Source: Psammoneis japonica (lineage: Eukaryota). Taken from it: DNA of 64,000 bases. Positions 1-50,025 of the stretch are shown one piece after another. The stretch is taken from NCBI GenBank assembly GCA_008632985.1, contig QPGO01000007.1, positions 124,001 to 188,000 on the forward strand, in the 5' to 3' direction. The position numbers and the translations under genes were made by a program. Each line of letters starts with the position of its first letter. Positions within the stretch are counted from its first letter, which is position 1. Under the pieces are notes generated by a model, which was not told the origin of the DNA, searched no databases, and worked only from the letters and a program-made list of their open reading frames with translations.

Positions 1-480
1 GCAACTCCTCTTCACCACTTGTCTTCTTGTTTGTTGTTGTTGCTCCCTTTTTTGTGTGGGGGCAGAATGAAGCCCACTTCTTGACAGCGGTGTTCTGAGA
101 AAGAAAAATTCCTCAGCAGCTGGCAAGCAAGATGACATGTGTGCAGAACAGCTGTTGTGAGCAAGGCTCAAATCAGTGACTGCAAAAAAAGCAATTTGTG
201 GATGTGAGGCAGCTGCATTTGTTGTTGATGCTCTCACATCATGGCTGCAGTTTGTGAGCACTTGTTGCAAAGTTGTTGATGCTCAGCTGTGCCTCAACAA
301 CACATTTGGCAGGTGGTTTGTGTGCTCATGAAGACAGACAGTGCACTCAGCAAAGGGCCTCAGTTGTTGGTGAGACACACATCATCTCATCAGCCAACCT
401 CTTGAAAGAGTGCATGGAGCTTCAATCTGGTCATTTGCATTTAATGTCATGTGCTCGGAGTGGGGCCAAAGCCAAACTTG
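1..480 (+). repeat. Decayed duplicate of 6600-7140 (part of a segmental duplication of the RME-8 upstream region)
   Basis: Collinear matches such as ggcagaatgaagcccacttcttg (61) vs ggcagaatgatgaagcccacttcttg (~6653), and gttgttgatgctctcac/tgtcatg...ctgcagtttgtgagcact in both copies. Confidence 0.85.
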
Positions 481-1399
481 GCAAAGCATTGAGTGTCTCA
501 CTCCACTCTGCACACTTGCTTCATTTGACACTCTCTCAAGCATGTGATCTTGGATTGACCCAGAGGCTCAGTGGGCTGGGCTGCATCTTTGTGCATGCAG
601 GACCCAAGAATGAGAAAGACAAAGCACCCATCTTTTTGTTGTTGGGCCCCCAATGTTGCCATGGGTGCTTTCTTCTTTTGGTTGCAGAGCTTCTGTGCAA
701 TCTTTTCTTCCACCACCTCTGCTTTTGTGGAAATGTTTGGGGCAGCAGCGGCACACCAGTGCAGGTCATGACCATGCAGTGGCTCAAGGGTGGCACTCAG
801 TGAGGTGTGGCTTTTTGAAGGAAAAGCTTGGTGGTGAAAAAAGAGCCCAAAAGAAAGAGTGCCAGAGTCTCAGTGCTCAGTTTGCAGGTGAGCCCAGAAA
901 ACAGAAATGCCACCACTGGTGCCAACAAGTCATTGGGTCAGTGCCTCAACTGGGGGTTGCTCTCCAACAATGTGCTGTCCCAGTGGCCCACTTCTGCTTG
1001 CACCAAGCAAGCTGCTTTTCCCACCTGACAGCTGCTGCTTGCTCTCCAAAAGCACCAGCCCTTCTTGGGTTGGAGACAGATGAGGGGTTGAAGGGAAAAA
1101 TGCTGTGGTGTGCATCCATGTGGCACCGTCCACTTGTCACCACTCACAGAGTTGTTGGGCCAAAGCAAATCCAGTGGCTGCCATTTTTGGATTTGCTGCC
1201 AGTGTTCCAACACCAGCTGTCCACAAGCATTGTCAGTGCTTGAGAAGTCAAATGCTCAAATCATGTGCAACTCTGGGAAGTGGGACAGACTGAGAGACCC
1301 AGTGGCGGGCAATGGCACAATGCCCTCAACATTCTGTGCCTGTTTCAAAGCACTTTTCCATGTCCAATTGACCAAACAAGGCAAAGTGCATTTGTTGCA

Positions 1400-2400
1400 A
1401 GACTTCTCACCTGTGCTCCACAGCAGCTTCACAGGTCATCCAGCAGAGCCACCAGCTCCATCATTGAGCACCTGAAAGAGCCAAATGACAAGTGCTTGCA
1501 TTGCTTGTTGCTTGTGCATCATGTGCCTTTGAGTCAAGGGTGTTCTGTCCCACACCTGGCACAGTTTGCTCTGCCTGGAAGAGACCAGCCATGACAGAGA
1601 CACACTGCACATGACCTGCACTGAGCAGAAATTTCTCTGCACAATGTCAGTCAGTGCATTTGACAAAAAGGAGAAACAGGTCACAGTGGGTGTGTCAGCA
1701 AAGATGAGATCACAAAGGAGCTGGGTAATCACCAGAGGCATCTGCAAAAGTCTGTGAGTGGCAGCAATGCCAACTCAGCATGTGGGTGAAACTCAAAGGC
1801 CTGGTTCAAAGCCATGATGTGGCCCTGCATGACCTCTCCAAACTCAGTCAAAGAAAAAGAAGAAGACAGCCTGCTGGCATTTGTTCAGTGTTTCCTTGGG
1901 TGTGGATCTCATGGACACTTCCATTGGGAAAAGGGAGAAACAAATCAACCATGAAAAGACAGAACTCACCAACATGCTTTTGGTTTGATTCAGTGCACAA
2001 TGGCTTTGTTGCTGCTTTCCACCACCATGTGCAGAAGTTGCTCTCTGTTGGAGGAGCCTGCTGGCACAGCTGGGTGCCACATCATTTCCCTCAGCCAGAC
2101 AGTCACCAGGGGGTCACCTTGTGGCACCACATTGTGCATTTCTTCTGTCCTGTTGCAGTGCAGTGGCCTGCCTTCATCCAGAACAAGGTGATCTTTTCTT
2201 GGGAGCCTTCTTGCTCAAAGAGTTGATTGCTGAATGACGGCATGGTCATGCACAATCCAGCATGCTTGCATGCAAAATTTTTCATTCCCACAAGGCTGCC
2301 AAATCCATCACTCAGATCCAAACCAGCAAACTTTCCCAAGGTCAAAAAGCAACAGCCCTCCATCAAAAGGTGCAGTGCTGTCACCATGGCATCAACCCAC
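1400..2400 (-). mobile_element. Possible heavily decayed Ngaro/DIRS-like RT-RNase H remnant
   Basis: Minus-strand LDLSDGF..LV..NFAC resembles DLSDGFWR..NFAY of these RTs. FADASG and WDRTP downstream loosely resemble RNase H motifs. Very degenerate. Confidence 0.3.
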
Positions 2401-3659
2401 CAGACATGCTGGTCTGATCTTTGACAGGAAGATTTGCCAGCAGTGCACATCACCAGGGGCCCAGTCTGGAAATGACATTCCAGGATGACACCCAGTCAAA
2501 GAGCTTTTTTGGCACAGAGCTTGTTGTTTGTTGTTGGCCATGCCACAATGTGCATGACACTCCAGCTTGTCACCTGGAGTGCAAAGACTCTTGTGCTTGG
2601 TGGAGGCCACAATGCTTGGCTCAAAGACCCAAGTGTCACTCAGAAGCTCAGCACCAATGCAACCTTTGTGCTCTTCATCCCTGGCCATGACTTTGGTGCA
2701 TTCCTGCTCATTGACAGTTTTGCTCTTGAGACCTTGAAGAAAGATGGCATCCCAGACAAAGACAGGCACATTGCTGGGGTTGACAAAGAGTGCTTCTTTC
2801 TCTTTGCTGCAGCAGCTTTCATGTGATGAAGGCCCGCTTTGGCATGATGGGAGTGTGGGCCACCAGCGGGGCAAGTGTGAGGGTGGGTGGGAGTGCAAGG
2901 CCCCTGTGCCACAGGGCTGTCTGACAAGAAGTGACTGTGCTGCATTTGGAGAACAACAAGTCCATTGCCAGCAATGGCCATCTCCTTGGCCATCACCACA
3001 TTCCTCCATGGCCTTTTGATGCAGCCGCCGGGCACATGGCAGGCTTCAAAGACATGGCACTTGTGGCACTGCTTTCAGACTTTCTTGTCTGTGCTGGAAG
3101 AGGGCACAACAGTGGAGTTGTAAGAGCATTGTGGTGTGCTTGCTCTCTTGTGTCTCACAGCCCTCCTCTTGTTCCCAGCCTGGGCCAGGGCCCTGGCCAT
3201 GCAATTGTTGGTCTCAATTTTGTGCAGGGGAAAATGCCAAATGCTGTGATGGGTGGTGGAGCAGTGGGCAACATGTTGAAACATCCAGAACAAGCAGGCT
3301 GTTGAAGAGAAGACTCACTTTGACTCCTGACATTTTGGATCTGGTGACACCTTGCATGCAAATGCACACTCTCATCAGAGATCTCACCAACCTTCTTTTT
3401 ATCTCACTCTTGAGAGTGAATCATCTGGTTTGTGCAAATTGTGTTTTGCTTTCAGTGGGTGCCTGTTGTGCTGCAAGAACAAAGTTCGTTGAGGACTTGT
3501 TCCAGGCAAACCACAGGAGCCACCACAGCAACCACGACAAGCATGACAAGTGGTGCAGGAAACCATGCAGGATTTCCTTTTGGCAACATTGACTTGTCAG
3601 TTCAACACAATGCAAAAAACATGTGCACATTGCACATGCATGTGTGGACAACAAGAAGT

Positions 3660-4040
3660 GTGTGCCACCAGCTTGCCAAACTCATTTTGGTCACACCATT
3701 GAGCCACCCCGGAGCAAGAGCCCATGAGAAAATGGCATCCCTGATCAGTGAAATGAACCAAAATGTTTGGATGGGCCATTGCATGCATGAAAACATTTGC
3801 AAACAAACACAGCATGCTGTGAAAACTTCTGCACCACATGACAGGCAGACAACAAGGCACAACATCAACTCTGCACACACACCTGAGACACTGACAAGCC
3901 CCCCCCCATGCTTGCTGCAGGGGTGAGGTGTTGACAAGACAAAAAGAAATGAAGTTGAGTGCACACCATTGGAGTGCCTCAGTCAAAAATGAAGTTTTGT
4001 GTTCATCATCTCTTGTTCTGATGATCAAATGATGTTTAGA
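3660..4040 (+). repeat. Decayed duplicate of ~7210-7590 (RME-8 upstream region)
   Basis: caccattgagccacccc.gagcaag.gcccatgag.aa.tg.cat.cctgatcagtgaaa is present at ~3695 and ~7246, and gtcaaaaatg.agtttt at ~3982 and ~7535. Confidence 0.85.
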
Positions 4041-4099
4041 AGCTGAGTGCTCAATCTTGTTGCTCCAGAATGCCAGACAAACTGGCCCAGTGGACAACA

Positions 4100-4640
4100 C
4101 CTCAACGTTCCACACTTGCTTCAAAAAGCATTTTTTCATGTCCAATCAACCTCGCATTTATGGCAACACTGTCCCCACCTGCCATGCTCCACAGCAGATG
4201 CACAGGTCCACCATCTCCATGTCAAGCACTGATGGTCATTTGCTTTTCCTGGGTTCAGCCCCAGAATCCTTGTTCACTTTTGAGCTCCAGAAAGCTGATC
4301 CTGTGTGTCCCTTGACCACAGAGCTCTGGCACATTTCAACAGAAGCTCCAGCAAGTTGTGTGCATTGCACCCCTTTTGTGAGCCCAATGAAAAGAACAAA
4401 CACAGCAGGCTGCCATGGCTGCTTGCACAGTTGTTTGGGACCCTTCATTCATTGGCCACCCTGCAAAGTTCAAATTGTGTGATTGAATGCTTCGCTGCCT
4501 CTGCAACAAAGGTGGGTTTTAAAAACCCAGTTGAGTGTCTCCATGGCAGGGTGCATTGGCCAATTGCAAAAGGAAGGGCTTCCTGCAGGTCCAGATTGTG
4601 ACATTGTTCCACTGAAGGTGATCTGATGTTCCAAAACACT
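4100..4640 (-). mobile_element. Possible decayed Gypsy-type integrase fragment
   Basis: HPAMETLNWVFKTHLCC and GPKQL...PWQPAVFVLFIG resemble the HPG zinc finger and PW..VAVDLIGP of Gypsy integrases. Frameshifted. Confidence 0.3.
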
Positions 4641-4883
4641 GCAAGTGGTTGGAAGACCCATCACCTGAATCATCCACTTGTTTGTCCCAAGCTCAAAACA
4701 CCATGCTGGTGCCTTTTGTGGTGGGGCTGCTGCTTTTGTTGGTGGTGAGATGGGAGACTCTCATTGACCAGGACAAAGACCCCACTTGTTGTTTTGTGCA
4801 CTTTGCCCCAGTTGTCCTGCAAGAGGGACAACCCATCTGCACAGAATGAGGAGTGCTGGCAAGGTTTTTCAGAGACCTGCTGT

Positions 4884-5585
4884 GACAGTGCTGAGTGATG
4901 ATGCAATGCGTGTTGCTTGTCTTTTTTTCTTCTTTGTGCTGGCTGCCAATGCTCTGTCCCATTGTCTCTGATCTTGTGTCTCTGTGTGTTGGAGAGTGCA
5001 AGGAAGGGAACTTGGTGGTGGATGTGAAGAGTTTTGTTTTTGTGGCCAGCACACAAAAGTCAAAAGACCCAGCAACTCCAGCAAGAAGCAAGAAGATGAG
5101 ACAAAGATCCACCAGCACTCCTGTCATTGTCCCAAGAATGCCCACTGTCACAGCACAGGATTGGGCAATGGCAAATGCACTGACACTGAGTTGCCAGAAT
5201 TTTCATGAGCAGTTTCTTGTGTGGAAATCACATCAGACAATGCTGAGTGATGATGCAACGCATGTTGCTTGTCTTTTTTCTTCTTTGTGCTGGCTGCCAA
5301 TGCTCTGTCCCATTGTCTCTGATCTTGTGTCTGTGTGTGTTGGTGACTGCAAGGGAATTTGGTGGTGGATGTGAAGAGTTTTGTTTTTGTGGCCAGCACA
5401 CAAAAGTCAAAAGACCTGGCAACTCCAGCAAGAAGCAAGAAGATGAGATGAAGATCCACCAGCACTCCTGTCATTGTCCCAAGAATGTCCACTGTCACAG
5501 CACAGGATTGAGCAATGGCAAATGCACTGACACTGAGTTGCCAGAATTTTCATGAGCAGTTTCTTGTGTGGAAATCACATCAGAC
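4884..5585 (+). repeat. Tandem duplication, two units of ~352 bp, each carrying a decayed copy of the RME-8 5' leader
   Basis: Units start gaca(g/a)tgctgagtgatgatgcaa at 4884 and 5236. Both end ...gtggaaatcacatcagac. Confidence 0.9.
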
Positions 5586-6122
5586 TACAACCAGCAGCAG
5601 CAGCTGCTGTCACCAACTTTGCTTGCAAGCCAATCTGCCACCACAGCCAACCAGAAACAGCCACCTCTTCACCAGCAATGTGAGCAGTGCACACTCAACA
5701 GCAGCCAATGTCATGTCAGCAACAGCATGGCAGACAATGTGTCAGCAGCAGCTGCTCACACACTGTGGCAGCAGCAGCAGCCAAAAATGCACCACCAGCA
5801 ACTGTGGCCAGTGCAAGACTCAGAGTTGTCTTTGGAAGAGTCAGAAAGCAGTGGTGCTGCAGAATCCTCAGAGAGTGAGCATGCACATGACAGACCACTT
5901 TCACAGCTTAGAAACTTGGGTTGAGACTCAAATCTGTGCTGGCATCTGCACTGGTGGAAAGAATCTTGGACTCACTTCTGCTCCAGCAATGACCAAGTTG
6001 CACCAGCAAGAGCAACCACACATGCTCTTGAGGACAAAGCATCTGTTCCATCAGCCCCAAGTGACAAACTGTGTTTCTTGTGTGGTGAACAGGGTGTGCT
6101 CTGCTCTTGTGTTGGCACAAGG
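5390..6122 (+). pseudogene. Truncated, hypermutated copy of the RME-8 leader and first ~200 codons (source ~7620-8402)
   Basis: Translation EESESSGAAESSESEHAHDRPLSQLRNLG vs intact EESEGSSTTESSESEHAGDGPLSQLGKLG. DNA stays collinear to ctcttgtgt...acaagg. Frameshifted. Confidence 0.9.
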
Positions 6123-7804
6123 GTGTGGCACAAGGGTGACTTCTGCCTCCCCAGCATCTCAATGGAAAGCATGGTTTGATGTCATGGCAATGCAATGCAA
6201 ATGTCATGAAATGTTTGTGTGTGTGTTGTTTCACTTTTAATTTGGCAACGCATGTGATGGTGTCTCATCACACATCATCACAACCACATCACATGGTGGC
6301 ACCACATGCAAACACCAGGTGGAAAAAAGTGTGTGATTGAATGAAAAACAGGGCACACCATACCTGGCAGACTGCTGCAGAAAACAAACCTGCTGGACAT
6401 TGCCCTTGTCAGCTTTGGCTGGTGCAGCATTCCTTTTTTGCTCCTTTGTCTGAGAAGTTGAAAATGACTCTTGAACTCCAGCACATGGGAACTCACACAG
6501 GTTGAAGCTGTGCTGGCTGCTTGAACTCAAGATTCTGTGCCACAGTCACAACCAACATTTCTCAGCAATGTTGGGTGTCATGCAAAGCTGAAAATCAGCC
6601 ACTCCTCTCCACCCCTCTTCTTGTTTGTTGTCACTTCTCATTTTTGCATGTGGGCAGAATGATGAAGCCCACTTCTTGTGAGCAGCATCCTAAAAAAAGT
6701 CAACAGCTGGCAGGCAGGATGATGTGCCCAGCTTTTGTGTGCAGAGCAGCTGTTGTGTGCAGCTTTTGTGAAGCAGAACAGCTGTTGCACACAAGGATCA
6801 AATGGGTGGCTGCAAAAAAGGGTGATTTCTTGTGAGCTTGAAACAGCTGCACTTGTTGTTGATGCTCTCATGTCATGACTGCAGTTTGTGAGCACTGGCT
6901 GCAAGTTTTTTGATGCTCAGGAGCTGTGCCTGAACAACACACATTGGCAGGTGGTTTGTGTGCCAATGAAGACATGCATCGCACACTCTGCAAAAGTGCT
7001 CCTTCACTTGTTGGCAACCAGGCATCATCTCGCCAGCCAACCTCTTGTTGGCAGAGTGCGCAGAGCTTCAATCTGGTGTCAGCTGCATTTGATGTCTTGT
7101 GCTTGGAGTGGAGAGCCAGCCAAAACCAAACATGGCAAATGCCATGATGGGTGGTGGAGTGATGGGCGGTGCGAAAGATGTGCACAACGTGTTGTGCACG
7201 TGTGTGTGAACAAATGCAAAGTCGCCAACCCAAACTCACTCCGATCACCATTGAGCCACCCCTGAGCAAGTGCCCATGAGGAAATTGCATTCCTGATCAG
7301 TGAAACTGAAAATAAACCAGAATGTTTGGACAGACCATAGATTGTGAGATTGCCGCCAAGTTAATTGCATGACTGTCAAAACTTCTGTACTATGACAGGC
7401 AGACAACAAGGACAGCATCAACCCAACAACACACACACCCGAGACACTGACAAGACAACCCCCCTTGCTTCGGGGTGCGAGGTCTTCACAATAGATAAGA
7501 AAAAATAGTACACAATTGAATGGGTAATGCCTTAGTCAAAAATGTAGTTTTATATTCATTATGTTTTTTCGAATAATCAAATGATTATTTTTCCGTAAGA
7601 CGTCGATCTTGATCGTGTCGGCGGCACAAAAGACCGGGCGACACTGAACACGGACGAGCAACAGCAAGAAGACGTGACAAAGATCCACAAGCACTCCTTT
7701 CGTTGCCCCAAGAGCGCCCGCTGTTACAGTACAGGATTGGGCAACGGTGAAAGCGCCAACGTTGAGTTGCTAAAGTCTCTTAAGCGGTTTGTTGGGTGGA
7801 AATC

Positions 7805-7814
7805 ATGTCAAGCA

Positions 7815-7862
<48 letters not shown>

Positions 7863-10800
7863 CGCCGCCTCTACAACCTTCATTCGTGAATCAACCTACC
7901 ACCGCGGCCAACATGCAGCAACAACCGCCTCCTCAACAGCAAGATCAGCAATACATGCAGCAGCAGCAGCAGCAGCAGCAGCAAATGATGTACCAGCAGC
8001 AACAACTTATGCATGATCAGCAACAGCAGCAGCCGATAATGCACCCTGAACAGCACCCGAAGGTGAACCCTCAATTCCAACAACAGACGCACCCTATACA
8101 AAATTCAGAATCGTCGTCGGAAGAATCGGAAGGCAGTAGCACTACGGAATCCTCAGAGAGTGAGCACGCTGGTGACGGGCCTCTCTCACAGCTCGGGAAA
8201 CTCGGTTTGAGATTCAAATCTACACCGGTATCTGACGGACAGAATCTTGGATTCACTCCTACTCCAGCCATGATCAAGTCTCACCAGCAAGAGCAATCGC
8301 ATACTCTCGAGGGTGAATCGGAACGCCCGCTCTATCAATTTCAAGTGACAAAATTACGTTCTTGGCGAACGGGATACGTTCGGCTCTTGTGTCTGTACAA
8401 GGATCGTTTCTGTACCTTCGATCCAGACTCGCATCAAGTGACAAACACATGGCCATACTCCGGTTTGACGGAATGGTTGGTACTGCCCAAGGAAAAGGAC
8501 ACCATCCTGATACAGGCCAATGCCGACAAGCTCAAGTTCAAGTGTGAAAACGTTCGAGCGTCCCTCGTCCTGACGGCGTTGCTCGAATGCAAAATCAACA
8601 GCGAGGGAGGCAAAAGCACAGAGCCGTTTCCACTCTTTACGTCTTGTGTCCGCCAAACACGGCACGCAACACGCATTCCCGTGGCACTCGAGGTGGCGCC
8701 CCACGGCCTGGTGGAGCGTCATGTTGCCACTCGCCAAGTGATTCAGACCTATCTCTACAGAGACGTCGCGTCGGTCGCACTCACGTCGGACGACACGAGT
8801 GGACTCGAAATTCGAATGATGTCACCACGATTGATTCCGAAATCTCGACTCTACTTTTGTCAAACAAGTACTGGTCGTCAAGGACGAAGTGAGATTGTCA
8901 CGCTTATGCGTGAGAATTTCGAAGTGCTAGGTTTGGAGCTGCAGATGAGTGAAAGCCGAACGGCACAAGCTTGGATGGATCAACGTCATGCTCTCGGAAA
9001 AGAAGCTGGTCCAATCGTGGCATCGTGGAATGTCACCAAATCCACAAGGCGTCATGATGCTTCCATCGTTGGACCGGATCAGGGATGGACTGGTGGAACC
9101 GTGTCGAGGCGGTTGGCCATTACCGGTCGTGCGTGTTTGATGGAGATGGATTCCGGTGGTGTCGTTTCTTGTCGTCGTCTCGCCGACTTGCATGCGTTGG
9201 TGCGACACCGGAGCGATGAAATCACATTGGAATATGTCAGTGGGAGTCATCGAACCTACACGTCGTCGAACCGTGACGCCTTGTTGGTTTCAATCTTGGA
9301 TGCAGCCACAACTCGTGGAATGAATCCCACAGTGCATGTGACAGACGTGACGAGTGGAGGGTACTGCCTGACAACCTTTCATTCCATGGAGTTTAACTCT
9401 TCCATTGCACCACCAAAGGCGACCTCGGGTATATTCCATGCGATATCCATCCCGATTCACTGTCTCAAGCAACTCCACGCCGTCTCGACAGCCACGTACG
9501 CTTTCTTGGCGCACGGTTCAGAGTCGTCGTTGCACGCGGGAGGGCCTCTCAAGGTTGTAGGAGAATGCAGCAGGGTGCTGGAGGCCTGTCGTGAGTTTAA
9601 TGCCAGCGTTCCTCCCACTGGAGAGGGACTACCAGCTTCGCTGACAGACAAGCTAATTCTGGGAAGCGCCGGTGCGTTGTGGGGTATCATTTCGAAACTT
9701 CTGCACCGCAGTCCTTCGCAAGACGGTCGCACGGAAAACAGCCGCGACTGGCATCAAGCGGAACTGATTGCCTGTCCCATCTTTCAGGCTCTCTTTCGGT
9801 TGACACAGACACCAGCCGGTTACAAGGGATCGGTGGAGCTGACGACTATGCAGGCATGCATTCCACTTCTGCTGGGCCTCGACGATGATTTTTGCCAGTT
9901 CTGGGCGTTGCGTGTGCTTGGTGTCATTATTTCCGGACCCGTGGCCGCTGACGAGCGTGATAGAGAGATTGAATATGTAAACAAAAGCGTAATATTGAGG
10001 TCTGGTGGGGAGAGTATGGTCGAGGGCCTGGTGTCCACTCTGCTAGATCCCGGTTCGAAGCAACCTGGTGGACAGGAACAAGTTTCCGACTTGATTCTAA
10101 TGGTAACAAGCGATATACTTCAGAGCGTCTTGTGCTCTCACCATGACACGACTACCCCAGAACATTTTCAGCGCTTTATCGATGCGTTGGCAAAGCGGTA
10201 AGTCTCTTTGTTCCCTTGTGCTACTATGTTAATGCTTGTTGCAACTCACTCGAGCACACCATCTTTATCTTTCAGTCACCGCGCACTTCTTACGGCATTG
10301 ATGGCTACAACCCCATTCATCATTGAGAATACAGCGTTACTCCTTCATCTACTGACGACGCATGCACCTCACACTTCGACCGCCATTAGGGATGCAGCTC
10401 TGAGTTCCGGGATTTTGTTGCAGCATTTCTATGCGGCCAATTTCAGTCCATTAGAAGGTCAGCGATTCTTGAGTCGTTATCTTTGTAGTGTTTGGTTATC
10501 AGGACCAATGGAGTGTGACGAGAAGAGGTTGCTAAAGAGGATGGTTCCAACGGGTTTCCTTGGCTATCTGAAGATGCCTCCGCTGAGCCGAATGGAAGAA
10601 GAACAGCTAGATGCGCTGGAGCGAGATGCAACTGAGGAAGGGGTTGCAGAGAATGACCAGCATACGACAGACGATACAAAACCCGACTCTTCGGCGTCTG
10701 GAACTAACACGGCGCGTCTCAGATCTAGAATAGCTGTTGCTACCGCGAATGCACCGGGAGACGCTACCCCGGAGAACTTTCGTATCTTCTTCCATGTTCT

Positions 10801-13800
10801 GACAAAAGATCATGCTCTTGCAGATTTGATTTGGAATCAACAGACTCGTCGGGAACTTCGTATTGCTCTGGAAAGTGAAATACAGTCAGTTAGACGGGCT
10901 ACCGAAGCTCGTGGAGGCATCGAGAGGATTGCTTGGAATCACCAGCAGTTTACAGTGCAGTATCCTTCGTTGAGGGACGAGGTCCAAGTTGGCAGTGTCT
11001 ACATGCGTTTATGGCTACAAGCAGGTGACGCGTTTATCAAGACTTGGGAAGAACCTGTTAGATTGTTTGAGCTTTTGTTTCGGCGGTTCCTGTGCGAAAT
11101 CGACCGCAACGCTACGGTACGTGCATGCTAAGAGTTGGCGTCTTTCAGAAGCACAGTTTTCTTATGTATTTGATCCTCTTCGTGGATTGCAGGTGACCAT
11201 CATGTGCATAAGGTGCCTCGAGAGGCTCTACGCGATTCATTCCTCGAGTATTGGGACCTTTTCTGATATTATGATCTTGGTTCATTCCATGGCGACCACA
11301 AAGAGTACAGAAACACAACACCGGCTCCTCGGTCTTCTTTCTACACTTCTTGGCGTTTCTGCGGATGAAGAGAAATACGGCATTATCAATATACCTGGGA
11401 ATGCAGAGCAGCTTTTAAATGCTGAAAGCATGAGTCAACTCTGCCAGTTCGTTGCGTGGGGACACACCAATGGATTACAAGTAGGAAATCTACTGGCGAA
11501 AGTGCTGGGTGACTCAACAATAGGGAATCCAAGCATGTTGATAACTGATGGTTCTAGTTCGGGCCCCGCAGGAAACGCTTCGGAGCAGAGCAGATCTGTA
11601 GAATCTAAGAAGCAAAAGGCGGCAGACGCGCAATGCCCGCCTGTCTGGTTCGTAGCATCAACCGGAAGAATCCCGCCGCCTCCAGAAACGGTTCGCGGTC
11701 CTTTCCGAGTGTCTGAGTTAATGGGAATGATGCAAGAAGGGGATATTTTCCCGCATTCTCTCGTATCCGCATCTCATGTCGAAGTGTACGACGATGAGGA
11801 GGAGCCAGAGACTACAGGGTCGTCTAGTGTCCGTGAAGCACAGATTGACACCGGCAAATGGCGCATGATCGAACAAGTTTGGCAGCTACGTTGGCAGCTT
11901 TGCACGGATGGTGGCAGCAAAGGTGTTTACGACCCATCAGAAGTCGCTCTAATGGCCCTGCGATCACTTTCCAGGCTTGTCGATTTGCACAAAAGTGTGG
12001 ACACACGTGGAGTACCTTACTATCCGATTCCGATTGCAAAGCGGTTGCTTTGCGGACAAAGTCGTGAATTGTCAACGTTTGGTAATTCTGATGCAGAGAG
12101 GGGCATGTTTGACGCAGGTGTGGTTATTGATCAGCGAGACTCCCTCGCTATTCTATGTCAGAGTCTACTTTGCAATGACCATCGAGCAGTGGATGCTGCA
12201 GCTGATTTGCTCTGCAAATTGATGGAATACAACAACGAAGCCTGCTCTAAGCTATACCTTACGGGAGTTTTTCTGTTTGCATGCTGCTACACCGGTAGCA
12301 ACTTCCATCGTCTGGGAAAGCTACTCCATGCTACTCACTTAAAGCAGCATTTTCGCTCCGGTTTTGCAGCAGCTGCGAGGGAGGAGGATCTGCCTATGAA
12401 AGAGAGGAGTATCCTTGGAAACATGCTTCCTGAAGGGTTGCTCTTCATGCTCGTGAACTATGGTTACGAAAGATTTACGGAAGTCTTTGTTGGTTCTTTT
12501 GACACCCCAGAAGTAATATGGAACTTTGAAATGCGAAAGCACCTTGTAGAAATGATCCGCCAGCACCTTGGTGACTTTCCAAAACGATTGTGGCAGAATA
12601 CTACGACGAAATACGAGTATTGTCCATTCCCCGGTGTTGCCTACAAAAAGCTGGAAAGGGAGATTTTCTGCCATAACTATTACCTTGCGAACCTTTGCGA
12701 TGAAGCGCGATTTCCGGACTGGCCTGTGGCCGAACCAGTGGAAGTATTCCGGGCTTGTCTGGAGGAGTGGAAGCAGCAGATGAATCGCGACGAAGCAAAA
12801 GAAGAAGACGCCCTGGAAGAGGCGCGAAAGGTACTTAGTCTCAACACTGGTGACGGGGGTCGAGAGCTTCGTCGGGCGTATCGAAATCTAGCAAGGTAAG
12901 ATGTCTCGTACATATCGTTTTCCCTTTTGGGTGTGTGCGTTACTTACATTATGGCGCGATCTTTTCGTTAGGAAATTTCATCCTGACAAGGTACGATGTC
13001 TAGTACACAATGTTACCCCTTTGGTTGTGTTCGTGTCTCAAATACCTCCCCTTTTCATTTGACAGAACCCCGCAGGTCGGGAAATGTTTGAGGCGGTTCA
13101 ATCTGCGTACGAGCTGTTGCTACCAATTGTCGAAGGCGGAGCAACAATTACGGCTACAACATCGGGAAGCGAATCCAATGAAGATGAGGCTGACAACAGT
13201 ACAGATTGGCTTGGAGGGGGCCGAGCTCAAATGCAGTCTATGCATCTTCTGATTAAGACGCAGGTGCTGCTCTGTAGGCGATATGCCAAGGAAATAAGCA
13301 AGTACAAGTACCCAGCGTATGGAATGCTTCTTTCTTGCCTCGACATACCCTCCTCATGCCATACGGCCGACACTACCGGTAACGGTGACCACGGGACAGT
13401 ATTTTCGTCTTGCTTGTTGAAACCCAGTAGAGCCAGTTTCGTCCAGACAGCCGTGGAGCTGCTGTACCAAACTTGTTTGGTGTCTCCTTTAAATGCCGAG
13501 GAGCTTATTCTCGAAGGGGGGATCCGTGTTCTCGATTCCCTCCTCGACTTTTATACTGGCGTTGCGTGCCTTCTATCTGATGGAAAACAAAGAAAGGAAC
13601 TGTCTCGTGATTCGAAGCATGCCATCGCATCGAGTAAGGCTGTCCTTGATATTATTTCTCATGCTGTTCACACGATCGCAGGGATAGCATTCTATGAAAA
13701 CGGTAGGAAGGCAATTCTTTCACTCGACGACCCAGCTCGACTATGCGTCAACTGGAGAAAGTGTGTTGACGGAAGCTTAGTGGTGCAAACGAGTGGAAAC

Positions 13801-16800
13801 GATACGTCGTCGATTAAGAAGTTTGCCTTGGAAGGGATTGCCCATATGGCAAGAAACAGTGAAATCCAGAACCTTCTAATCGGAAGCGGAATTGTATGGC
13901 CACTCACAAGAAATCTTCTTGGGTATGACCCGACGCTTGATGTCGTATCGACCAAGTACGATGGACAAGAGAATGTAGTCACGTCGCAGGCTGCCAGTAA
14001 TTCCCACGCGAGGCTTTCAGCACGGGCTTTGGGACTTTTGTGCGGTGTCATGAGGGATGCATCCCTACAGTCACCGACAAACACGACGTTGTTCAATGCT
14101 ATGCATCACTTGCTCACACATCCAATTGCGCGACTTCTTCGGAATAAACGTACAGAGGATCTCCTGAGTACTTTGAACGCAAATGTAGAGACTCCTGTTC
14201 GAGTCTGGAACGTTCGCATGCGAGAGGAACTATCAGAGTTCCTTGACGCAGCGGAAAGCGATCGTGCTGGTGCCGGCTTCCGTCCTATCAATGAAGAACT
14301 GTCACCTGCAATGTCATTTGAATATAATGGCTTGAAGAATGAAATCGTGGTAGGCGGTATATATCTTCGAGTGTTCAATAGCATGGGTAGCGGCAGAGAA
14401 AGCCTACGAGAAATCTCGGATGCAGCAAAGTTTGGGAAGGAAGTTCTTCGTTTCATAGCTCGCAGCCTGAATGAGCATCCTGGCTTTCGTAGTAGGGCCC
14501 CTCCAGTTCCTCTCCCGGATAACGCGGATTCAGAGACACAGGGTCTTTCTGAGGAGGAAGCCCAGTTTGCTTCAGTCGACGATCAAGGCTTTTTGATGGC
14601 GATAAGCGCTCTCCGTCTTCTTGTTCGCGTTGACGGGCTAATCGACGACGTGCTTTGCGACGACAGTGCACATGGGTCATTGGTACTTTTGAGCTTGTTA
14701 GAGCTACCATTGAACAGCGAGGTGAGCATAGACGTAAAATCGCTTTTGTCCTACTGTGAGTGCGTATCATTGACTCTTGTTCTTTCCACAGGTGTTTGGC
14801 ATAGGGTCCGATGTATTGGCATTAATGACTCCGAAGCAAGAGTTTGCCGACGCTGTTTCGAGGCAGGGGGGATTGCAAAGGCTGCTGATGGTTTTAGAGC
14901 GACCCGAGAGCGAAAATAGCGATTCAAATCTTGAAGAAAGCGCTCAACCGGCCCGTGACGGCGCTAGACGACAAGAACAGGGCTGGTCAATTTTGGAGTC
15001 GCTTTCTTCGTCCCCATCTGTCGCATCGAAGCTAGTTCATTCGAGCGGGTGGCTAGAGTTGCTTGGTATCCTCGTCGGTTACTCTAAGTTTACGAAACAA
15101 TTTGTCGCGCGTCTCGGTGCGGGCAGAGTATTGTCTCGATTGTTGTGGGATCCCAAAACTGGTTCTATTGCAGGTACGTAAGAGAATGAGCACGGCGAGA
15201 ACCCACAATCTCGCGTTTTTCTTATCTCAAAGTAGCTGACACGTAGTTTTGTAATTTGCACACAGCACCATTGATACAGAGGTTTCTCCCCGCAACCCTG
15301 GCCGTAATTTTGAAGGAAGAGGGTCCAGATGTCATGCTAAAGGTTTTCGATGGGGAGAGTGAAACCCCCGAACTGATTTGGGATGCTTCGATGAGAGGAG
15401 AAGTCAGGAAGGTGATCGCAGAGCAGCTAAATATGCTCGTTCCTGCTAATGAGGAACGTCTGGTGCATTGTGATAGCTTCAGCCTGCCCACCGATGTTCA
15501 CGTTCGTTATAGGAAACTAGAGGACGAATTGTATATTGGGGGCGTTTACGTGCGGTTGTTCTTAAAAGAACCAACCTTCCGACTCCGCGATCCGACTTCC
15601 TTTTTAGAAATGCTGCTCTTGAGGTGGACGCAAGAGTTGGAGTTGCTTACGTCGTCAGCAAAAGGCTCTGCATCGGCGACACCTTTGCAGGACAGTAGTG
15701 CTGTTGTAGAGGCAAAGCAAGATGCGCTTCAACTTGTCACCAGTGCAAGCGTGTACTTATGCAAGGTTCAGGAATCGCTCTGCGACAAACTGGCTCAGTG
15801 GGGCTACATGTCTCGGTGTTTGTCGCTGATGGAATCAGTTCTGTCGGTGGATCTCATTGGTACCCCTCTTGTCAGCATAATCCGATTGCTACATGTGGCT
15901 TCAAATCGACGCGTCAATGTTGAACGAATTGCTGTAGCATGTGGCAGCGACGGCAGGAATGGAATCGTTGATCTAGCAATTCAGTCTTTCGGGGCAGATC
16001 CTCTTCATCAGGATTGTGCCTTCATGGTGGAGCTCTTGAACAAGATTTTCAAAGAGGCTCTTGGCGACGTACACAACGCACCAAAGGCGTCGATTTCACA
16101 GCGTTTCGATTCTTCGGTGCCAGCACCGATCGATCCGACACCCCGGGCACAGCAGCATCGGCAGTCGAGTCAACCAAGTCACGATGCATGGCTAGATCAA
16201 GAGGCGGCATTCAACGCAATGGCTCCTTCTCCTGCACCAGGACCGGGGCCAGTATCAAAGTCGCAATTCGGAAAGGTTAAGGTGGATGCATTCGACGATC
16301 CATTGGCAATGTTTCGTCAAGAGCCAGCACAATCACAGGCAAATACACCTCTTCCGCCAGGGAGAGGCTCGTTGGGAACCGCCGGGCAGGCCCAACAGGA
16401 GGGGATTAGTGCTCGCCAAGGGATTAGTGCTCGCCAAGGGCTATCCCAGCAAGGTTTGTTCCAGAATGACTCCTCGATGCGGTCATATCAACCGGGAGCC
16501 CCAATACCAAATTCGCATGCTGTCTCGCACGTTATGCACAACACGACGGGCAATCTGCCCTCGCAGACCCAACAAAATAGTCAGGCGTCGCAATCCCATC
16601 CACCCTACGCCCTCAGCTCGATCACCCAGTCACAAGGCTGGAAGGTGCATGGCCAGTCGTCGACACAGTATGCTCCGCAGCAGCAGCAGGCTGTGTCCAC
16701 AGGTGTCTCTAGGGGGGGTCCAGTGTCGCAATATCAATCACCACCAAGTGTTCAGCATAGTGCAAACATGCCGCAGACTGGACCTAACGTAGGGCAAACG

Positions 16801-18042
16801 ACAACGCTACATACCCAGTACAACCAGCCGCAGCATTTTTCTCGACAGCAACCCCATCTTGCGCCGCTATCATCGAATTCGAATCAGCATATATCAGGGA
16901 GTCAGCAGATTCCGTATCAGCCTCAAGCCATGCCCGGGCAACAGATGCCGCCCCCGCAGGTATCGAGCCAGCAATACGAAACAGGAATGACGGCGGCACA
17001 GCAACAAGTACCCGTTCATCAGGCGATGCATCAACAAAACGCACCTTCTCACAACGCGGCTCAGCCCACAAATGAACCACAAATGAAGAGTCAGTTTCAA
17101 TCGCTGTCACCGGGAGGCCAAGCGCAGCAGCCGGCGCAACCGTCCCATTTGCCGCAATTGAGCAGTCAACCTGCACAGCAACAAACACGAACCGAACAGC
17201 ATCCTATGGCAGCAAATCAGATGCCGACTCAATCTTATTCTGCTCAACAAACGCATCAACCGTTGCCACAGGGAGGCCAAGGACTTCATATCCAAACAGG
17301 AACAAGACAGCAGCCTATGCCGACCAATTCGACACCGATGCGGAACCAATCTTACTCTGGTCAACAGGCGCATCAACCTTTACCACCTGGAGGCCAAGGA
17401 CACCATCCTATGTGGACGAGTCCGATGCCGAACCAATCTCACTCTGCTCAACAAACGGATCAGGTCCCTCAGTATCAGCATCAAGGTTTGAACCAGCCAC
17501 TGGAGCCAACCGTGTTAGCTCCTACCGGAGCTCATGCTCAACAAGGTACCGAACCAGCGCGACGCGTAGGTCCTCCACCCGCAGAACCGTCTCCTGTGCA
17601 GCGACCCTATCTCCCCAGTGCCGTTGAAGGGAGTGGTGTCGATGCACGCACGCCGATTGATCCTGCTGTAGTAGCAAATCAATCCATGCTGTCAATTCCC
17701 GGCGCACCGGGAAGCGCGCAAGGTCGGGTTTCACTGCTTCAGTCTGCACTTGCTTGCGAGCTGCCCCGTGTTTTGTTGCAAGACGTGTTGGAGAATTCAA
17801 CCCTGCAGTCCATCAAGGACCCCGCCTCCGCCAAGGTGCATGCAGTGGAGCTTCTGAAACTTTTAACCGTGGACCCCGGGTACGGACTCAAGTTCCAGTT
17901 GATTTTGGATGAGTTACCTGCCTGGAAAAAGTACAAGTCGCAGGATCATTCTCTTTTTATCACCGGCTCGGAGCAAAAGGCTGACTACTTCTTGACCGAT
18001 GGAGGAATGGGAGAAGCAAAGAAGATGTTGACGAACCAGTAA
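7805..18042 (+). CDS. RME8: RME-8/DNAJC13 (GRV2-like) endosomal J-domain protein, 3256 aa. Exons 7805-10197, 10276-11116, 11193-12895, 12972-12990, 13066-14721, 14792-15173, 15266-18042.
   Basis: IWN-type repeats (DLIWNQQTRREL, EVIWNFEMRKHL, ELIWDASMR), J domain RRAYRNLARKFHPDKNPAGREMFE, GYF-like segment, C-terminal WKKYKSQDHSLFI. All six introns are GT-AG, 70-92 bp, and splice in frame (9771 nt including stop). Confidence 0.93.
7814..8032 (+). repeat. CAG/CAA trinucleotide tracts encoding N-terminal polyglutamine of RME-8
   Basis: (cag)n runs at ~7817-7861 and ~7958-7984. Confidence 0.95.
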
Positions 18043-18088
18043 ACATTATAATATGCTGACACTGCGCACGAATCTCCACTTCTATCAT

Positions 18089-18246
18089 CATTGATTGTGT
18101 TCTGAGGTATACGGCACTTTTTCCATGCTTGTTGCGACCCGCTTCCGTGAGTCGAAAAATGACTCTGATTGATAGTGTTCTGAGGTAAACGGCACGTTCT
18201 CCATGCTTGTTGCGACCCGCTTCCGTGAGTCGAAAAATGACTCTGA
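18089..18246. repeat. 78-bp tandem duplication between the convergent RME-8 and monooxygenase 3' ends
   Basis: tctgaggta starts at 18101 and 18179. ccatgcttgttgcgacccgcttccgtgagtcgaaaaatgactctga occurs twice. Confidence 0.95.
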
Positions 18247-18406
18247 AAAAATGCACTTCGGTTCGCTGAACGGCAGTATCAATGTCTCTCTAGAGCAATC
18301 GATTCGTTGCGGTTCATGTTAGGAACATTGAAAAGTATTGGGAGCCTTATCTACTGCGATAGACAGCCTCAGAAGGGAAACGCTAAAAAATTATCACAAT
18401 ATGTAT

Positions 18407-19849: not shown

Positions 19850-20791
19850 TGTAGTGTGAAGGGTCGGCGGCGGTGCTTTGAACTTCGTTTGCGACCTTCT
19901 TGTTCTCGTTGCAAGTCAAAAAATGAAGTAATTCGAATTCTGTGTGAAAGAGGCCTACTTACGGAGCTCCGAGCTCCAGACCACTCACCAAGGGACTACA
20001 GCAGCCAAAATGTGTTGGCTAGAACCCAGGCGGGTGGGTCGGGAGGGTCCTTTGGCTATCTACTTGTGTTAAAACAACACACAAACAACTTCACCTTTCA
20101 CCAAGCTTTCACAACATTTCGTCGTGTTTGTTGAAGATCCAATCCAGCAGGCAGAATGGAGTCGTGCACTCGTGACGTGGCGCGATACAATTTATTCGTA
20201 CCGGCATGTCTTCAGTCGTGGGAAGCTAAAGCCGAGCATCCGGTAATGTATGTGCTAAAGTATTTGAAAATTTTCGAAGGAACACGCACAACAGTTGAAA
20301 ATTACAGTAGGGCAATAGGCTGGGCATGTTTCGAAAATGACCCGTGACGTAGAATAACAAGCCCTTCGGGAGGGCATTGATGACCACGGCAAATCGTTTA
20401 CTCTAGTAGAGTCAGTCTTGGCGCCAAATGCCACGGCGCCGCACCCGGGATTTTTTAAATAAGGAAATTGTGCATTCGACCTAGAAATTATTTTTTTCAT
20501 GCGGAACACATGGCCGTTGACCAATGACACAAGCGTCCGTTGAATCCACAACGATGTCAACACAATTGATTGCAATCATTTCGGTCCTTATTTAAGAGCT
20601 TTTACTCCGATGACACGGGCTCATTGGTTTCCTTTGTGATGGAACAACATGAGCGTGGACACTTTTTTTGTTCCAAAAGGGTGTGCAAAATTTTCAACCC
20701 TCTTTTGGCCACAAAAAAATTGTGGAGCCAGTTGACAAATGAAGCTGAGTTGCACAACTCTAGCTCACAAACTGCCTCACAGCCAAGAAAA

Positions 20792-21188
20792 GATGAGTTC
20801 CAGCTCTGGGTGGGACCTCATGCTGCGCACTGCTGAACTGCAACATCGACAGTTTTTTGGATCGCGCCACATGTCGCGCACGCAGACAGCTGCGTGACTT
20901 TGGTGGATTTTTGTGTCATTTTGCAGTGCAATTGTTGAGCTGTCCATTCAACAACTTTTAACATGTTTTTCTTCTGTGCCATTCTTAAATGTCTTAAGAA
21001 TGGCACATGGCAGGTGGTTTTTCAAAATCTTCGAGTGTGGGCAGGTGCACATGCACTGCAAACTTGGTCGTTTGTTTGATGTTGAAGACAAACATGTCCA
21101 TCAATTTAATTCTCGTGCTTTGGAGCTCACACACAGAGTTCTGTGGGCCCAATGTCACACAGAGTCCCACCTGGGGCTGGAACCCATC
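20792..21188 (+). mobile_element. MITE copy 1 (~400 bp, ~25-bp TIR GAYGGGTTCCAGCCCCAGGTGGGAC)
   Basis: gatgagttccagctctgggtgggac ... gtcccacctggggctggaacccatc, flanked by aaaa/aaaa. The interior matches the reverse complement of 33953-34344. Confidence 0.8.
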
Positions 21189-35130: not shown

Positions 35131-35212
35131 CATGTTTCACCTCATCTTTTTGATGCACATCAAATTCAAAATTGATGCCATGGACTGCACCAAGCGTTGT
35201 GATGATGGGTTG

Positions 35213-40230: not shown

Positions 40231-40287
<57 letters not shown>

Positions 40288-49910: not shown

Positions 49911-50025
49911 GCCTTTGTCTATCCAACATGTGTCTTTCCTGTGAAAGAATGAAGCAAATTGGTCCAGTGGTTGATGAGACATGGCTGCATGAAGCATGAT
50001 GAAAAGCTGTCCTTGGGTGCATCCC

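Follow-up and report, generated by a model that had tools for sequence, protein, structure and literature searches.

In vertebrates, plants and fungi, methylated CpG decays in silenced transposons, and retroelements are hypermutated by deaminases, which leave G>A changes in the case of APOBEC3 and A>G changes in the case of ADAR. Modified thymines are known as well, with base J on both strands of trypanosome telomere repeats and 5-hydroxymethyluracil in dinoflagellates. Diatoms are major eukaryotic primary producers, and the control of their transposons is poorly known. CpG methylation of one diatom retrotransposon, Blackbeard, has been reported in P. tricornutum (PMC2806351). We also compare the present locus with repeat-induced point mutation (RIP), which is found in Neurospora and other ascomycetes and is described in the RIPCAL paper (PMC2621366).

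The analysis covers one 64-kb window (64,000 nucleotides) of the pennate diatom Psammoneis japonica, which is divided into two compartments. A purged "sea" takes up about 76% of the window; in it, TA has an O/E of 0.03-0.13, TG and CA reach 1.7-1.9, and the GC content stays at ~48%. CG is also low across the sea (O/E 0.05-0.36), with the exception of 57.5-64 kb (0.84), and four sea tracts combine a TA O/E of 0.03-0.06 with a CG O/E of 0.05-0.36. TA is retained only in segments that sum up to 15,559 of the 64,000 bases. These gene islands keep both TA and CG, even in the RME-8 promoter (TA O/E 0.68) and in the spacer separating two convergent genes (TA O/E 0.68, CG O/E 1.22). The purge runs unbroken through spacers and stops at sharp edges, which are unrelated to where homology ends. 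The earlier note had read this signal from a single pair of sequences, the RME-8 gene and its pseudocopy; the signal is real, but it extends far beyond that pair. Counted from 180 aa upwards, the window holds 57 frames without a stop, many of which overlap one another in the sea; such long open frames are false, because TA-free DNA excludes the stops TAA and TAG as well as Tyr codons. The recognisable pieces of the sea are all duplicates or mobile elements, namely the RME-8 copy, the promoter copy and relics of Copia, RT, Ham1 and kinase sequences.

Table 1. Positions of the genes, duplicated segments and relics within the 64-kb window
Feature	Position	Strand	Remarks
Purged sea around the pseudocopy	1-7165	.	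12 TA (O/E 0.03), 22 CG (O/E 0.05), 866 TG, 858 CA
Upstream third of duplicated unit, copy side	2-485	+	TA/CG purged; pairs with 6596-7139
Purged copy of RME-8 promoter	3607-4033	+	394 columns, 314 identical
Pseudocopy A, leader only	5030-5240	+	From 347-bp tandem duplication within the copy
Pseudocopy B, leader and 5' CDS	5408-6124	+	TA/CG purged; frameshifted; start ATG to ACA
Upstream third of duplicated unit, gene side	6596-7139	+	TA/CG purged; pairs with 2-485
RME-8 promoter/upstream region, intact partner	7166-7585	+	CG resumes at 7167, TA at 7313
Gene island keeping TA and CG	7292-20586	.	RME-8 and convergent FAD-monooxygenase gene
Intact partner, leader (7605-7804) and first 600 nt of RME-8 CDS (ATG at 7805)	7605-8404	+	Alignment
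Expressed RME-8/DNAJC13 gene	7805-18042	+	GT..AG joints of RNA contigs, ORFs, orthologues
RME-8 introns	10197-10274, 11116-11191, 12897-12972, 12989-13063, 14720-14789, 15171-15262	+	GT..AG joints
FAD-monooxygenase gene	18410-19915	-	Convergent with RME-8
RT relic	24707-25567		In the sea
110-bp direct repeat, left copy	35213-35322	+	6 TA kept
110-bp direct repeat, right copy	35563-35672	+	5/6 TA to TG or CA; 4/4 CG kept
Near full-length Ty1/Copia relic	57572-63153	-	TA O/E 0.13, CG O/E 0.84

Expression of the RME-8 gene is documented by spliced RNA contigs from position 7993 onward, and a micro-exon of 16 nt sits between its third and fourth listed introns. The diatom orthologues comprise 3000-3290 aa and share 42-56% identity with it. 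Residues 178-797 of exon 1 match RME-8_N (Pfam PF19432, E=5.5e-43), and the last exon gives a second match. The three downstream exon ORFs that were scanned gave no DnaJ match at E<=0.001, the exon at 10275-11115 lying outside the scan; PF00226 is present in many of the homologues.

The pseudocopy of this gene is a DNA-level duplication, in which the promoter and upstream DNA are present and stand in the order seen at the gene. A blastn comparison of 5434-6122 with 7663-8402 gave E=1.7e-48, and a transition-tolerant local alignment of the gene (7627-8404) against pseudocopy B yielded 690 columns with 509 identities, 149 transitions and 32 transversions. A tandem duplication of 347 bp at 4884-5585 makes the leader of the copy occur twice; the two versions, A and B, agree at 337 of 350 positions, and A aligns to the gene (7605-7815) over 208 columns, 150 of them identical. 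The copies of the promoter and of the upstream DNA were detected by blastn and afterwards aligned with a transition-tolerant score. The two upstream segments share 384 of 473 columns, with only 1 TA and 2 CG left. Thus, the duplication noted earlier does exist, but it is larger than had been thought, as it also takes in the promoter and the upstream third.

Within this unit, the changes have a narrow spectrum and a single direction. In the leader/CDS and promoter alignments taken together, not one of the 81 gene-side TA and CG steps survives in the copies, and 72 have turned into TG or CA. The reverse change, from a gene-side TG/CA step to TA or CG, occurs at 0 of 188 steps. By class, TA is altered in 33/33 cases, and CG became TG or CA in 43/48 (22 TG and 21 CA). 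In the leader/CDS pair, copy B has lost 21/21 TA (12 to TG, 7 to CA and 2 other) and 38/38 CG (18 to TG, 17 to CA and 3 to CT), against 0/111 changes in the opposite direction; in the promoter pair, 12/12 TA and 10/10 CG are altered, of which 10 and 8, respectively, gave TG or CA. All five Tyr codons in the duplicated part of the CDS read TGY or CAY in the copy. The state of the gene agrees with the orthologues at RPLYQFQVTKLRSWRTGYVRLLCLY: Tyr is retained at TGY and CLY in 12 of 13 aligned orthologues, and at PLY in 7 of 13, the others having Phe. A close sister sequence was looked for and none was found.

Such a spectrum bears on the idea that selection acts against TA and CG words in non-genic DNA, which might serve as cryptic promoters, nuclease sites or targets of sensors. 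Viruses and phages are known to avoid short words, but here selection would have to act on every site to achieve ~97% removal from decaying pseudogenes and transposon relics that stretch over tens of kilobases. Selection would also take any escape, in contrast to the 72 of 81 changes that are single transitions to TG or CA. We consider this explanation very improbable.

An artefact of sequencing, modified-base calling or assembly polishing is even harder to credit. Some platforms do miscall heavily modified DNA. However, DNA contigs from a separate assembly of a public DNA run have no other letter than the sea over stretches of 3605, 724 and 355 nt, and their depth equals that of the gene, although this confirmation of the sequence is non-independent in that the run probably comes from the sample behind the genome assembly. 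Moreover, besides transitions there are indels, transversions and insertions between the copies and the gene, and a strand-specific miscall would not yield a clean TG at one site and CA at another. Compared with these contigs over 20 kb, the window shows three single-letter differences, two of which are TA>CA (6361) and CG>TG (7354). Double flips of TG to CA are also well over chance, at 13/111, 8/77 and 8/114 steps, with 2/82 in a 96%-identical pair. Together with the differences at 6361 and 7354, they indicate that the purging process is ongoing.

The position of the sea edge reveals how the process is targeted. The edge (~7167-7313) cuts through the duplicated unit, and targeting hence follows position, not homology. 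The earlier note had claimed that only the copy is mutated: this holds from ~7167 rightwards and fails in the upstream third, where both partners have lost TA and CG. The 8 flips in 114 steps of that third compare with ~28 expected if the two sides had been purged independently and later, so that its purge seems to predate the duplication. Rightwards of the edge, the promoter and leader of the gene retain 22 TA and 22 CG, and the leader by itself 4 TA and 15 CG, in line with the statement that the gene copy keeps TpA even in its 5' leader. Neutral-like sites of the gene partner show no equal loss of TpA, with a TA O/E of 0.82 and a CG O/E of 0.98 in five RME-8 introns, as judged by composition rather than against an outgroup.

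A second pair behaves likewise. The two copies of a 110-bp direct repeat, 350 bp apart, differ at 8 of 110 columns, and the TA loss is confined to the right copy. Altogether, the continuous purge, the edge within the unit, the intact sites of the gene partner and this one-sided repeat bear out the view that targeting does not work by homology pairing. The single-copy depth of the sea in the DNA contigs (67 vs 59) likewise speaks against homology. Chromatin state or lack of transcription, to which the earlier note attributed the targeting, may be the cause; the spliced RNA contigs establish no more than that the gene is expressed. All five quoted pairs of strings were found where the earlier note had placed them.

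These observations weigh against a RIP-like process, in which duplication or transposon copy number would trigger a hypermutation that spreads to neighbouring DNA, while the expressed partner is shielded or its mutant alleles are selected out. It would agree with the duplicate or mobile nature of every recognisable sea piece, and transitions in one dinucleotide context ruin coding capacity just as in RIP; moreover, all of the sea may be repeat-derived, which would allow a repeat trigger followed by spreading. However, in each of two separate pairs one partner has kept such steps outside coding sequence (22 TA and 22 CG in one, 6 TA in the other), the purge is continuous over spacers and its sharp edges bear no relation to where homology ends, same-strand tracts are absent, and the doubly purged part seems to have been purged DNA before it was duplicated. 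We regard such a process as unlikely, though it deserves to be kept in mind.

The Copia relic provides a further comparison. It gives an RVT_2 match (E=7.6e-21), and a tblastn search with a homologue of 1859 aa aligns residues 1-1850 to it, spread over three frames; the window yielded no LTR pair for it. From 44 homologues, we took the 673 columns in which 20 or more sequences are represented and 80% or more of these agree, and the relic matches the consensus at 587 of them. The 33 conserved Tyr columns now read 16 Cys (TGY), 10 His (CAY), 4 Tyr, 2 Phe and 1 Trp, so that 26 of 33 have become Cys or His codons by changes on both strands, with CG nearly intact. Codon classing of the 86 mismatches assigned 36 to TA and 19 to CG, which are upper bounds since the most favourable ancestral codon was chosen each time; the Tyr count is exempt from this choice. 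Judged by these homologues, the relic provides an independent, outgroup-based polarity for TA to TG/CA. The polarity claimed previously (TA>CA/TG and CG>TG/CA) is thereby upheld from three sides, by the Tyr residues of the orthologues, by the asymmetry of 72 vs 0 and by the Copia outgroup.

The outcomes are symmetric between strands. TG and CA are even, both in the sea at 1-7165 (866 vs 858) and at the Copia Tyr codons (16 vs 10). Runs tests found them unclustered, with 16 runs vs 13.6 expected and 45 vs 36.8 expected, and revealed no same-strand tracts among them. This symmetry matters for the possibility that the purged pieces are retrocopies of RNAs edited from A to I by an ADAR-like enzyme. 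ADAR enzymes favour a 5' U or A, and the Copia relic is a retroelement. However, the coding strand shows T>C in 10 of the 26 Copia Tyr changes, an outcome that could not arise if the genomic RNA had been edited; the RME-8 copy carries promoter and upstream DNA in gene order and is a DNA-level duplication; the sea is continuous, and CG is lost as well. Edited retrocopies are thus a highly implausible source.

Loss of TA is separable from loss of CG, a point missed in the earlier note, and is the quicker of the two, because the Copia relic lost most of its Tyr codons while its CG stayed nearly intact. The TA purge also comes 150-350 bp closer to genes than the CG purge. The CG arm looks like ordinary 5mC decay: a 93%-identical pair shows 18 CG-vs-TG/CA differences on ~29 CG sites, compared to 9 transitions at 357 non-YpR bases. 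Such decay cannot account for the whole signature, because TA is lost independently, with a TA O/E of 0.13 beside a CG O/E of 0.84 in Copia, and 5/6 TA but 0/4 CG altered in the 110-bp pair.

We propose, at a probability of about 0.68, that TpA and CpG are hypermutable in a silent compartment of this genome and decay there to TpG and CpA independently of any homologous partner, while expressed islands escape. The pseudocopy would be part of a tandem segmental duplication of at least 1.8 kb that included upstream DNA, promoter, leader and 5' CDS. Unable to make a protein, it would have joined the silent non-genic compartment, where TpA and CpG, the self-complementary pyrimidine-purine steps, would be many times more mutable than other sites. 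The mutations land on single sites and on a random strand, with no need for a homologous partner. Expressed islands are spared, introns included, as are some hundreds of bases of promoter and the DNA that separates convergent genes. The CpG arm would be deamination of 5-methylcytosine. For the TpA arm, the chemistry can only be guessed at: it would be driven by an enzyme, either through deamination of adenine at TpA, with A turned to I and read as G, or through a mutagenic mark set on the T or A of this step in both strands, similar to CpG methylation.

More speculatively, TpA might be a second "CpG-like" dinucleotide of the silent chromatin of diatoms, either marked on both strands or adenine-deaminated in double-stranded DNA. 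This would be a compartment-targeted A:T-to-G:C defence, the mirror of RIP, running ~10x faster than 5mC decay (a rough ratio, with equilibrium partly assumed) and wiping Tyr codons, TATA-like words and two of the three stops from silent DNA. We hold this larger picture as possible and somewhat doubtful. Our literature search found no described counterpart of TA-directed mutation (TA to TG/CA), and we know of no natural enzyme system that removes TpA from chromosomal DNA by A:T-to-G:C transitions. Compartment-wide removal of TpA would be a new mutational signature, and could be a new genome-defence chemistry; an adenine deaminase or TpA-directed modifier, if real, would be relevant to epigenetics and to base-editing tools. 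Purging also conceals pseudogenes from ordinary similarity searches, and the before/after pairs found here are ready substrates to measure the process.

Compared to the decay of methylated CpG, the diatom pattern shares the change of CG to TG/CA, the strand symmetry, the restriction to the silent compartment and the excess of TpG/CpA, but deamination of 5mC spares TpA, which is lost here more strongly and earlier. As with APOBEC and ADAR, enzymatic deamination against mobile elements may be at work, and TA>TG can be read as A>G. However, those enzymes edit single-stranded cDNA or RNA, asymmetrically between strands, in clusters and only in retro-copied sequence, whereas the diatom changes are strand-even, unclustered and found in DNA that was never RNA, promoter and upstream segments included. 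By analogy, base J and 5-hydroxymethyluracil may be precedents, in that an enzyme there marks the thymine of TpA in silent DNA, on both strands alike. To our knowledge, thymine hypermodification is known neither in diatoms nor as an eraser of genomic TpA, and a literature search on it returned dinoflagellate papers only, with none for diatoms. Like RIP, the process inactivates duplicated genes and transposons by transitions in a dinucleotide context, and its skew marks a genome compartment. RIP depends on a cytosine methyltransferase of the RID/Dim-2 type and takes place at a premeiotic stage. It aligns repeats and mutates both copies, whereas the diatom process spares one partner, has an edge that ignores homology and leaves no same-strand tracts. 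Moreover, RIP changes C:G to T:A, mostly CpA to TpA, and enriches AT, whereas the diatom sea loses TpA by changes from A:T to G:C.

Scoring the base steps as O/E in 500-nt windows splits the sequence into two classes: the islands, segments with ordinary TA (O/E 0.57) and CG (O/E 0.95) that combine to 15,559 of the 64,000 bases, and the surrounding sea, which is purged of TA. The sea region 1-7165 retains 12 TA (O/E 0.03) and 22 CG (0.05), along with 866 TG and 858 CA, and three further sea tracts have a TA O/E of 0.06 and a CG O/E of 0.22-0.36. The purge is a property of the compartment, not of the pair formed by the RME-8 gene and the decayed duplicate upstream of its 5' end. Low-complexity DNA was rejected as an account of the sea, of which tandem repeats make up a small fraction. 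The sea holds relics of genes and mobile elements, including a Ham1/ITPase fragment, a kinase-like fragment and two RT relics. The Ham1/ITPase ORF is not a working gene, as its frame breaks off past profile position 124 of 186, the domain continuing in another frame; the kinase-like ORF, in a tract with TA O/E ~0.1 and CG ~0.4, is probably another gene relic. An inverted pair (20792-21188 and 33953-34321, 79% identical) with nine shared CG and few TA marks both ends of a 13-kb sea tract, and may delimit a large mobile element. The sea also has patches of 370-450 nt with CG preserved and TA purged (33918-34368, 44125-44543, 52109-52510 and 53167-53533), which could be either younger insertions or CpG patches free of methylation. 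Searches for tRNAs (ARAGORN) and Rfam families gave no matches, either in the window as a whole or in the mini-island at 35.3-35.6 kb. DNA without TA has no room for TAA or TAG stops, and on both strands the sea is crowded with long stop-free frames that overlap, for example three of 522-689 aa at 60.3-62.4 kb; such frames are a trap for gene callers.

Coordinates of islands, genes, relics and repeats in the window
Feature	Position	Strand	Remarks
Island	7292-20586		RME-8 and convergent FAD-monooxygenase gene
Island	46560-48620		One gene
203-nt island patch	35206-35408		
RME-8/DNAJC13 gene	7805-18042	+	First exon matches Pfam RME-8_N, E=5.5e-43
16-nt RME-8 micro-exon	12973-12988	+	Letters inside the 12896/13064 joint of a contig of public run X2
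Kinase-like ORF	27270-28157	+	Pkinase E=2.1e-5, weak, under Pfam cut-off
Direct repeat pair, 93% identical	39637-40263 / 40429-41082		CG decay in progress
Ham1/ITPase relic	50029-50649 and 49707-50102	-	Pfam Ham1p_like E=2.1e-22, in sea

The best relatives of RME-8 have 3000-3290 aa, belong to pennate diatoms such as Fragilaria, Seminavis, Cylindrotheca and Nitzschia, and are 42-56% identical; in the search for a sister sequence as outgroup, the best matches reach only 42-57%. Contigs of X2, a public run, splice out four GT..AG introns of the gene in addition to the intron pair flanking the micro-exon, indicating that RME-8 is expressed and spliced. X2 is labelled "DNA?", yet its contigs skip GT..AG introns and it therefore behaves as a transcriptome; none of them lies on 1-7337, which is not counted as evidence that the copy is silent. 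The convergent genes are separated by DNA with a 78-bp tandem repeat (18090-18246, two copies, 94% matches); an X2 contig has one copy fewer, with a joint at 18121/18200 that mimics an intron. Falling inside the repeat, this joint was rejected as an intron, and the intron figures are given without it. Contigs of a public DNA run, X1, have a similar depth on the gene and its flanks (59 and 67) and no differing letters against the window in pieces of 3605, 724, 355 and 10,159 nt. The X1 sample is probably the source of the assembly, so that this DNA support is not independent; all results concern a single 64-kb window. The 12 metagenome loci consist of gene or transcript fragments whose TA and CG are normal, include almost no intergenic DNA, and are uninformative on the spread of the purge.

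The sequence strings quoted in the earlier note for the gene and its pseudocopy were all found in place, and blastn aligned 5434-6122 with 7663-8402 (E=1.7e-48). Pairs were further compared by transition-tolerant local alignment. The long pair (gene 7627-8404 against 5408-6124) comprises 690 columns, with 509 identities, 149 transitions and 32 transversions. A second alignment, of 208 columns, joins gene 7605-7815 to 5030-5240, the leader being present twice in the copy because of a 347-bp tandem duplication inside it (4884-5585, 337/350 identical). Further upstream, the RME-8 promoter region 7166-7585 pairs with 3607-4033 by blastn and by the same aligner (314 of 394 columns identical), and 6596-7139 pairs with 2-485 (384 of 473). 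The copy is collinear with the gene, a tandem duplicate made at the DNA level and 1.8 kb or more in length. It took in upstream DNA, the promoter, the leader and 5' coding sequence, and insertions at 486-3606 and 4034-5029 have since split it. The duplicate thus includes the gene 5' end described earlier and is larger, as upstream DNA and promoter were duplicated as well; this collinearity led us to reject a retrocopy. A short high-copy repeat at ~3380-3610 adjoins the start of the promoter copy, with an X1 word depth of up to 394 in the bin and ~3300 at 3412, and with many loose ends at 3380 and 3568-3609.

Each of the 21 TA steps on the gene side of the long pair is altered in the copy (12 to TG, 7 to CA and 2 other), as are all 38 CG steps (18 to TG, 17 to CA and 3 to CT). 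The start codon ATG reads ACA in the copy, and the five Tyr codons that were duplicated are all lost, TAY having become TGY three times and CAY twice. The promoter pair behaves alike, with 12 of 12 TA (10 to TG/CA) and 10 of 10 CG (8 to TG/CA) altered. Taken together, these two pairs, which do not overlap on the gene side, have 81 of 81 TA/CG steps altered, 72 of them to TG/CA; in the reverse direction, the copy has TA or CG at none of the 188 gene-side TG/CA steps. Within the duplicate, one protein stretch alone is conserved, and it reads RPLYQFQVTKLRSWRTGYVRLLCLY in the gene. The Tyr residues of TGY and of CLY are kept in 12 of the 13 diatom orthologues aligned at this stretch and that of PLY in 7 of the 13, with Phe in the remainder, which indicates that the TA in these Tyr codons is ancestral. 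For the non-coding parts, the polarity comes from the 72-to-0 asymmetry and the composition of the surroundings. The proposed direction, from TA/CG to TG/CA in the copy, is borne out by both the orthologue Tyr residues and this asymmetry.

On the gene side, the five RME-8 introns (483 nt) have a TA O/E of 0.82 and a CG O/E of 0.98, the promoter (7313-7604) contains 18 TA, the leader 4 TA and 15 CG, and the spacer of the convergent genes has O/E values of 0.68 for TA and 1.22 for CG. As introns, promoter, leader and spacer all keep these steps, the sparing of the gene partner is not explained by selection, and it does extend, as the earlier note held, even to TpA in the leader. The edge of the sea falls within the duplicated unit, where CG resumes at 7167 and TA at 7313, so that the upstream third is purged in both partners and the promoter and gene part in one only. 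The claim that only the copy was mutated therefore stands for the promoter and gene part but fails for the upstream third. Within the part purged in both partners, TG and CA differ at 8 of 114 steps. Had purging been independent after duplication, ~41 ancestral TA/CG steps resolved randomly would give ~28 disagreements (hand arithmetic from the densities of the long pair). The 8 disagreements, compared to ~28 expected, argue that the upstream third was purged before duplication. After duplication, the purge appears to have struck the promoter and gene fragment alone, which had just fallen silent.

A second pair of direct repeats, of 110 bp (35213-35322 and 35563-35672), differs at 8 of 110 columns. 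Five of the six TA of the left copy are TG or CA in the right copy, and all four CG are the same in both. This pair is younger and shows the one-sided purge on a smaller scale. The 240 nt separating the two repeats (35323-35562) retain TA and CG and include a run of 14 T. The view that targeting is independent of homology, rather than guided by homology pairing, gains support from both the edge that cuts the duplicated unit and the 110-bp pair purged on one side.

The region 57.5-64 kb, with a TA O/E of 0.13, a CG O/E of 0.84 and 57% GC, is, by protein homology, a Ty1/Copia relic. It has an RVT_2 match (E=7.6e-21), and residues 1-1850 of a 1859-aa homologue align to it, interrupted by two frame changes only. 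No LTR pair for dating the relic was found in the window (best local score 36, compared to shuffles of up to 39). We compared it with homologues of at least 1800 aa, 44 of the 120 listed, and counted a column as conserved if at least 20 sequences covered it and at least 80% of them agreed. Of 673 such columns, the relic matches 587. The 33 conserved Tyr columns read Cys (TGY) in 16, His (CAY) in 10, Tyr in 4, Phe in 2 and Trp in 1, whereas 583 of the 640 non-Tyr columns are intact; thus, ~88% of the TA is gone from a protein that is otherwise ~91% intact. CpG is barely touched. By a rough estimate from these sequences, TA would be ~100 times as mutable as ordinary transitions and ~10 times as mutable as CG. 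The equilibrium ratios of the sea, 27-72 for (TG+CA)/(2·TA) and 5-39 for (TG+CA)/(2·CG), point in the same direction. The TA purge comes 150-350 nt closer to the gene than the CG purge at each of the four island edges (7167-7313, 20600-20900, 46200-46560 and 48600-48850), and on the scale of 500 nt CG is nowhere purged where TA survives. Loss of TpA is the faster arm of the process and can be separated from CpG loss. The earlier reading of a joint TA and CG purge was incomplete in this respect, as the TpA arm is distinct and dominant (TA 0.13 against CG 0.84 in the relic). Among all 120 listed Copia homologues, the median Tyr retention is 0.95. Two of them, predicted proteins from the database, keep 11 of 23 (P0155; 7 Cys and 4 His) and 12 of 24 (P0050; 4 Cys and 5 His) conserved Tyr, with 85-91% of their other conserved columns intact. 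This half-finished Tyr pattern suggests that the signature is present on other public contigs.

The outcomes are strand-symmetric: TG and CA number 866 and 858 in the sea region 1-7165, 16 and 10 at the Copia Tyr codons, and, in the long RME-8 pair, 12 and 7 at TA and 18 and 17 at CG steps. Runs tests revealed no clustering along the DNA (16 runs compared to 13.6 expected, and 45 compared to 36.8). Strand symmetry and lack of clustering argue against both a burst of a processive single-strand deaminase and editing of an RNA intermediate; the pattern fits many independent events at sites that read alike on both strands. Since a double change from TG to CA must pass via TA or CG, its frequency (13/111, 8/77 and 8/114 steps) speaks for a continuing process. 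In the 96%-identical tandem pair, double changes amount to 2/82, compared to 4/181 for single transitions at other bases. Over 20 kb, the window and the X1 contigs differ by three single letters, including TA>CA (6361) and CG>TG (7354). From these differences, the purge seems to be still running. In the 93%-identical direct repeat pair, 10 CG are shared, 18 of the 45 differences are CG against TG/CA, and 5 TG/CA flips occur in 112 steps. The 173 surviving TA of the sea are non-random, with 41 in TTAA and none in ATAT, and 6% have a 5' A (equivalently a 3' T), compared to ~23% at TG/CA steps; no flank bias is seen among the 1026 CG that survive. Judged by the survivors, ATA/TAT seems to be the best substrate and TTAA the worst.

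Altogether, these comparisons show a compartment-wide, homology-independent, strand-symmetric and site-by-site conversion of TA and CG to TG/CA, from which expressed islands are protected, their non-coding parts included. Chromatin marks, a lack of transcription, as the earlier note proposed, or some other feature may define the compartment. The CG arm would be ordinary deamination of 5-methylcytosine, given the CpG methylation of a diatom retrotransposon reported in P. tricornutum (PMC2806351) and the 18 of 45 differences in the 93%-identical pair. The TA arm would need A>G or T>C at TpA. Either the adenine of TpA might be deaminated, or a mutagenic modification might be placed on the T or A of TpA on both strands, much as CpG methylation is laid on both strands. 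A full-text search of CC-licensed PMC and bioRxiv, which subscription papers and genome notes could escape, turned up no paper on the loss of TpA from silent nuclear DNA, in diatoms or elsewhere; with this incomplete coverage, the negative is not proof of novelty. Compared to known systems, the process resembles RIP in its consequences but lacks its defining features, namely the base change, the gain of TpA, the hitting of both partners and the coincidence with the repeat. The process likewise lacks the strand and clustering hallmarks of APOBEC/ADAR editing, and contains CpG decay as its minor arm.
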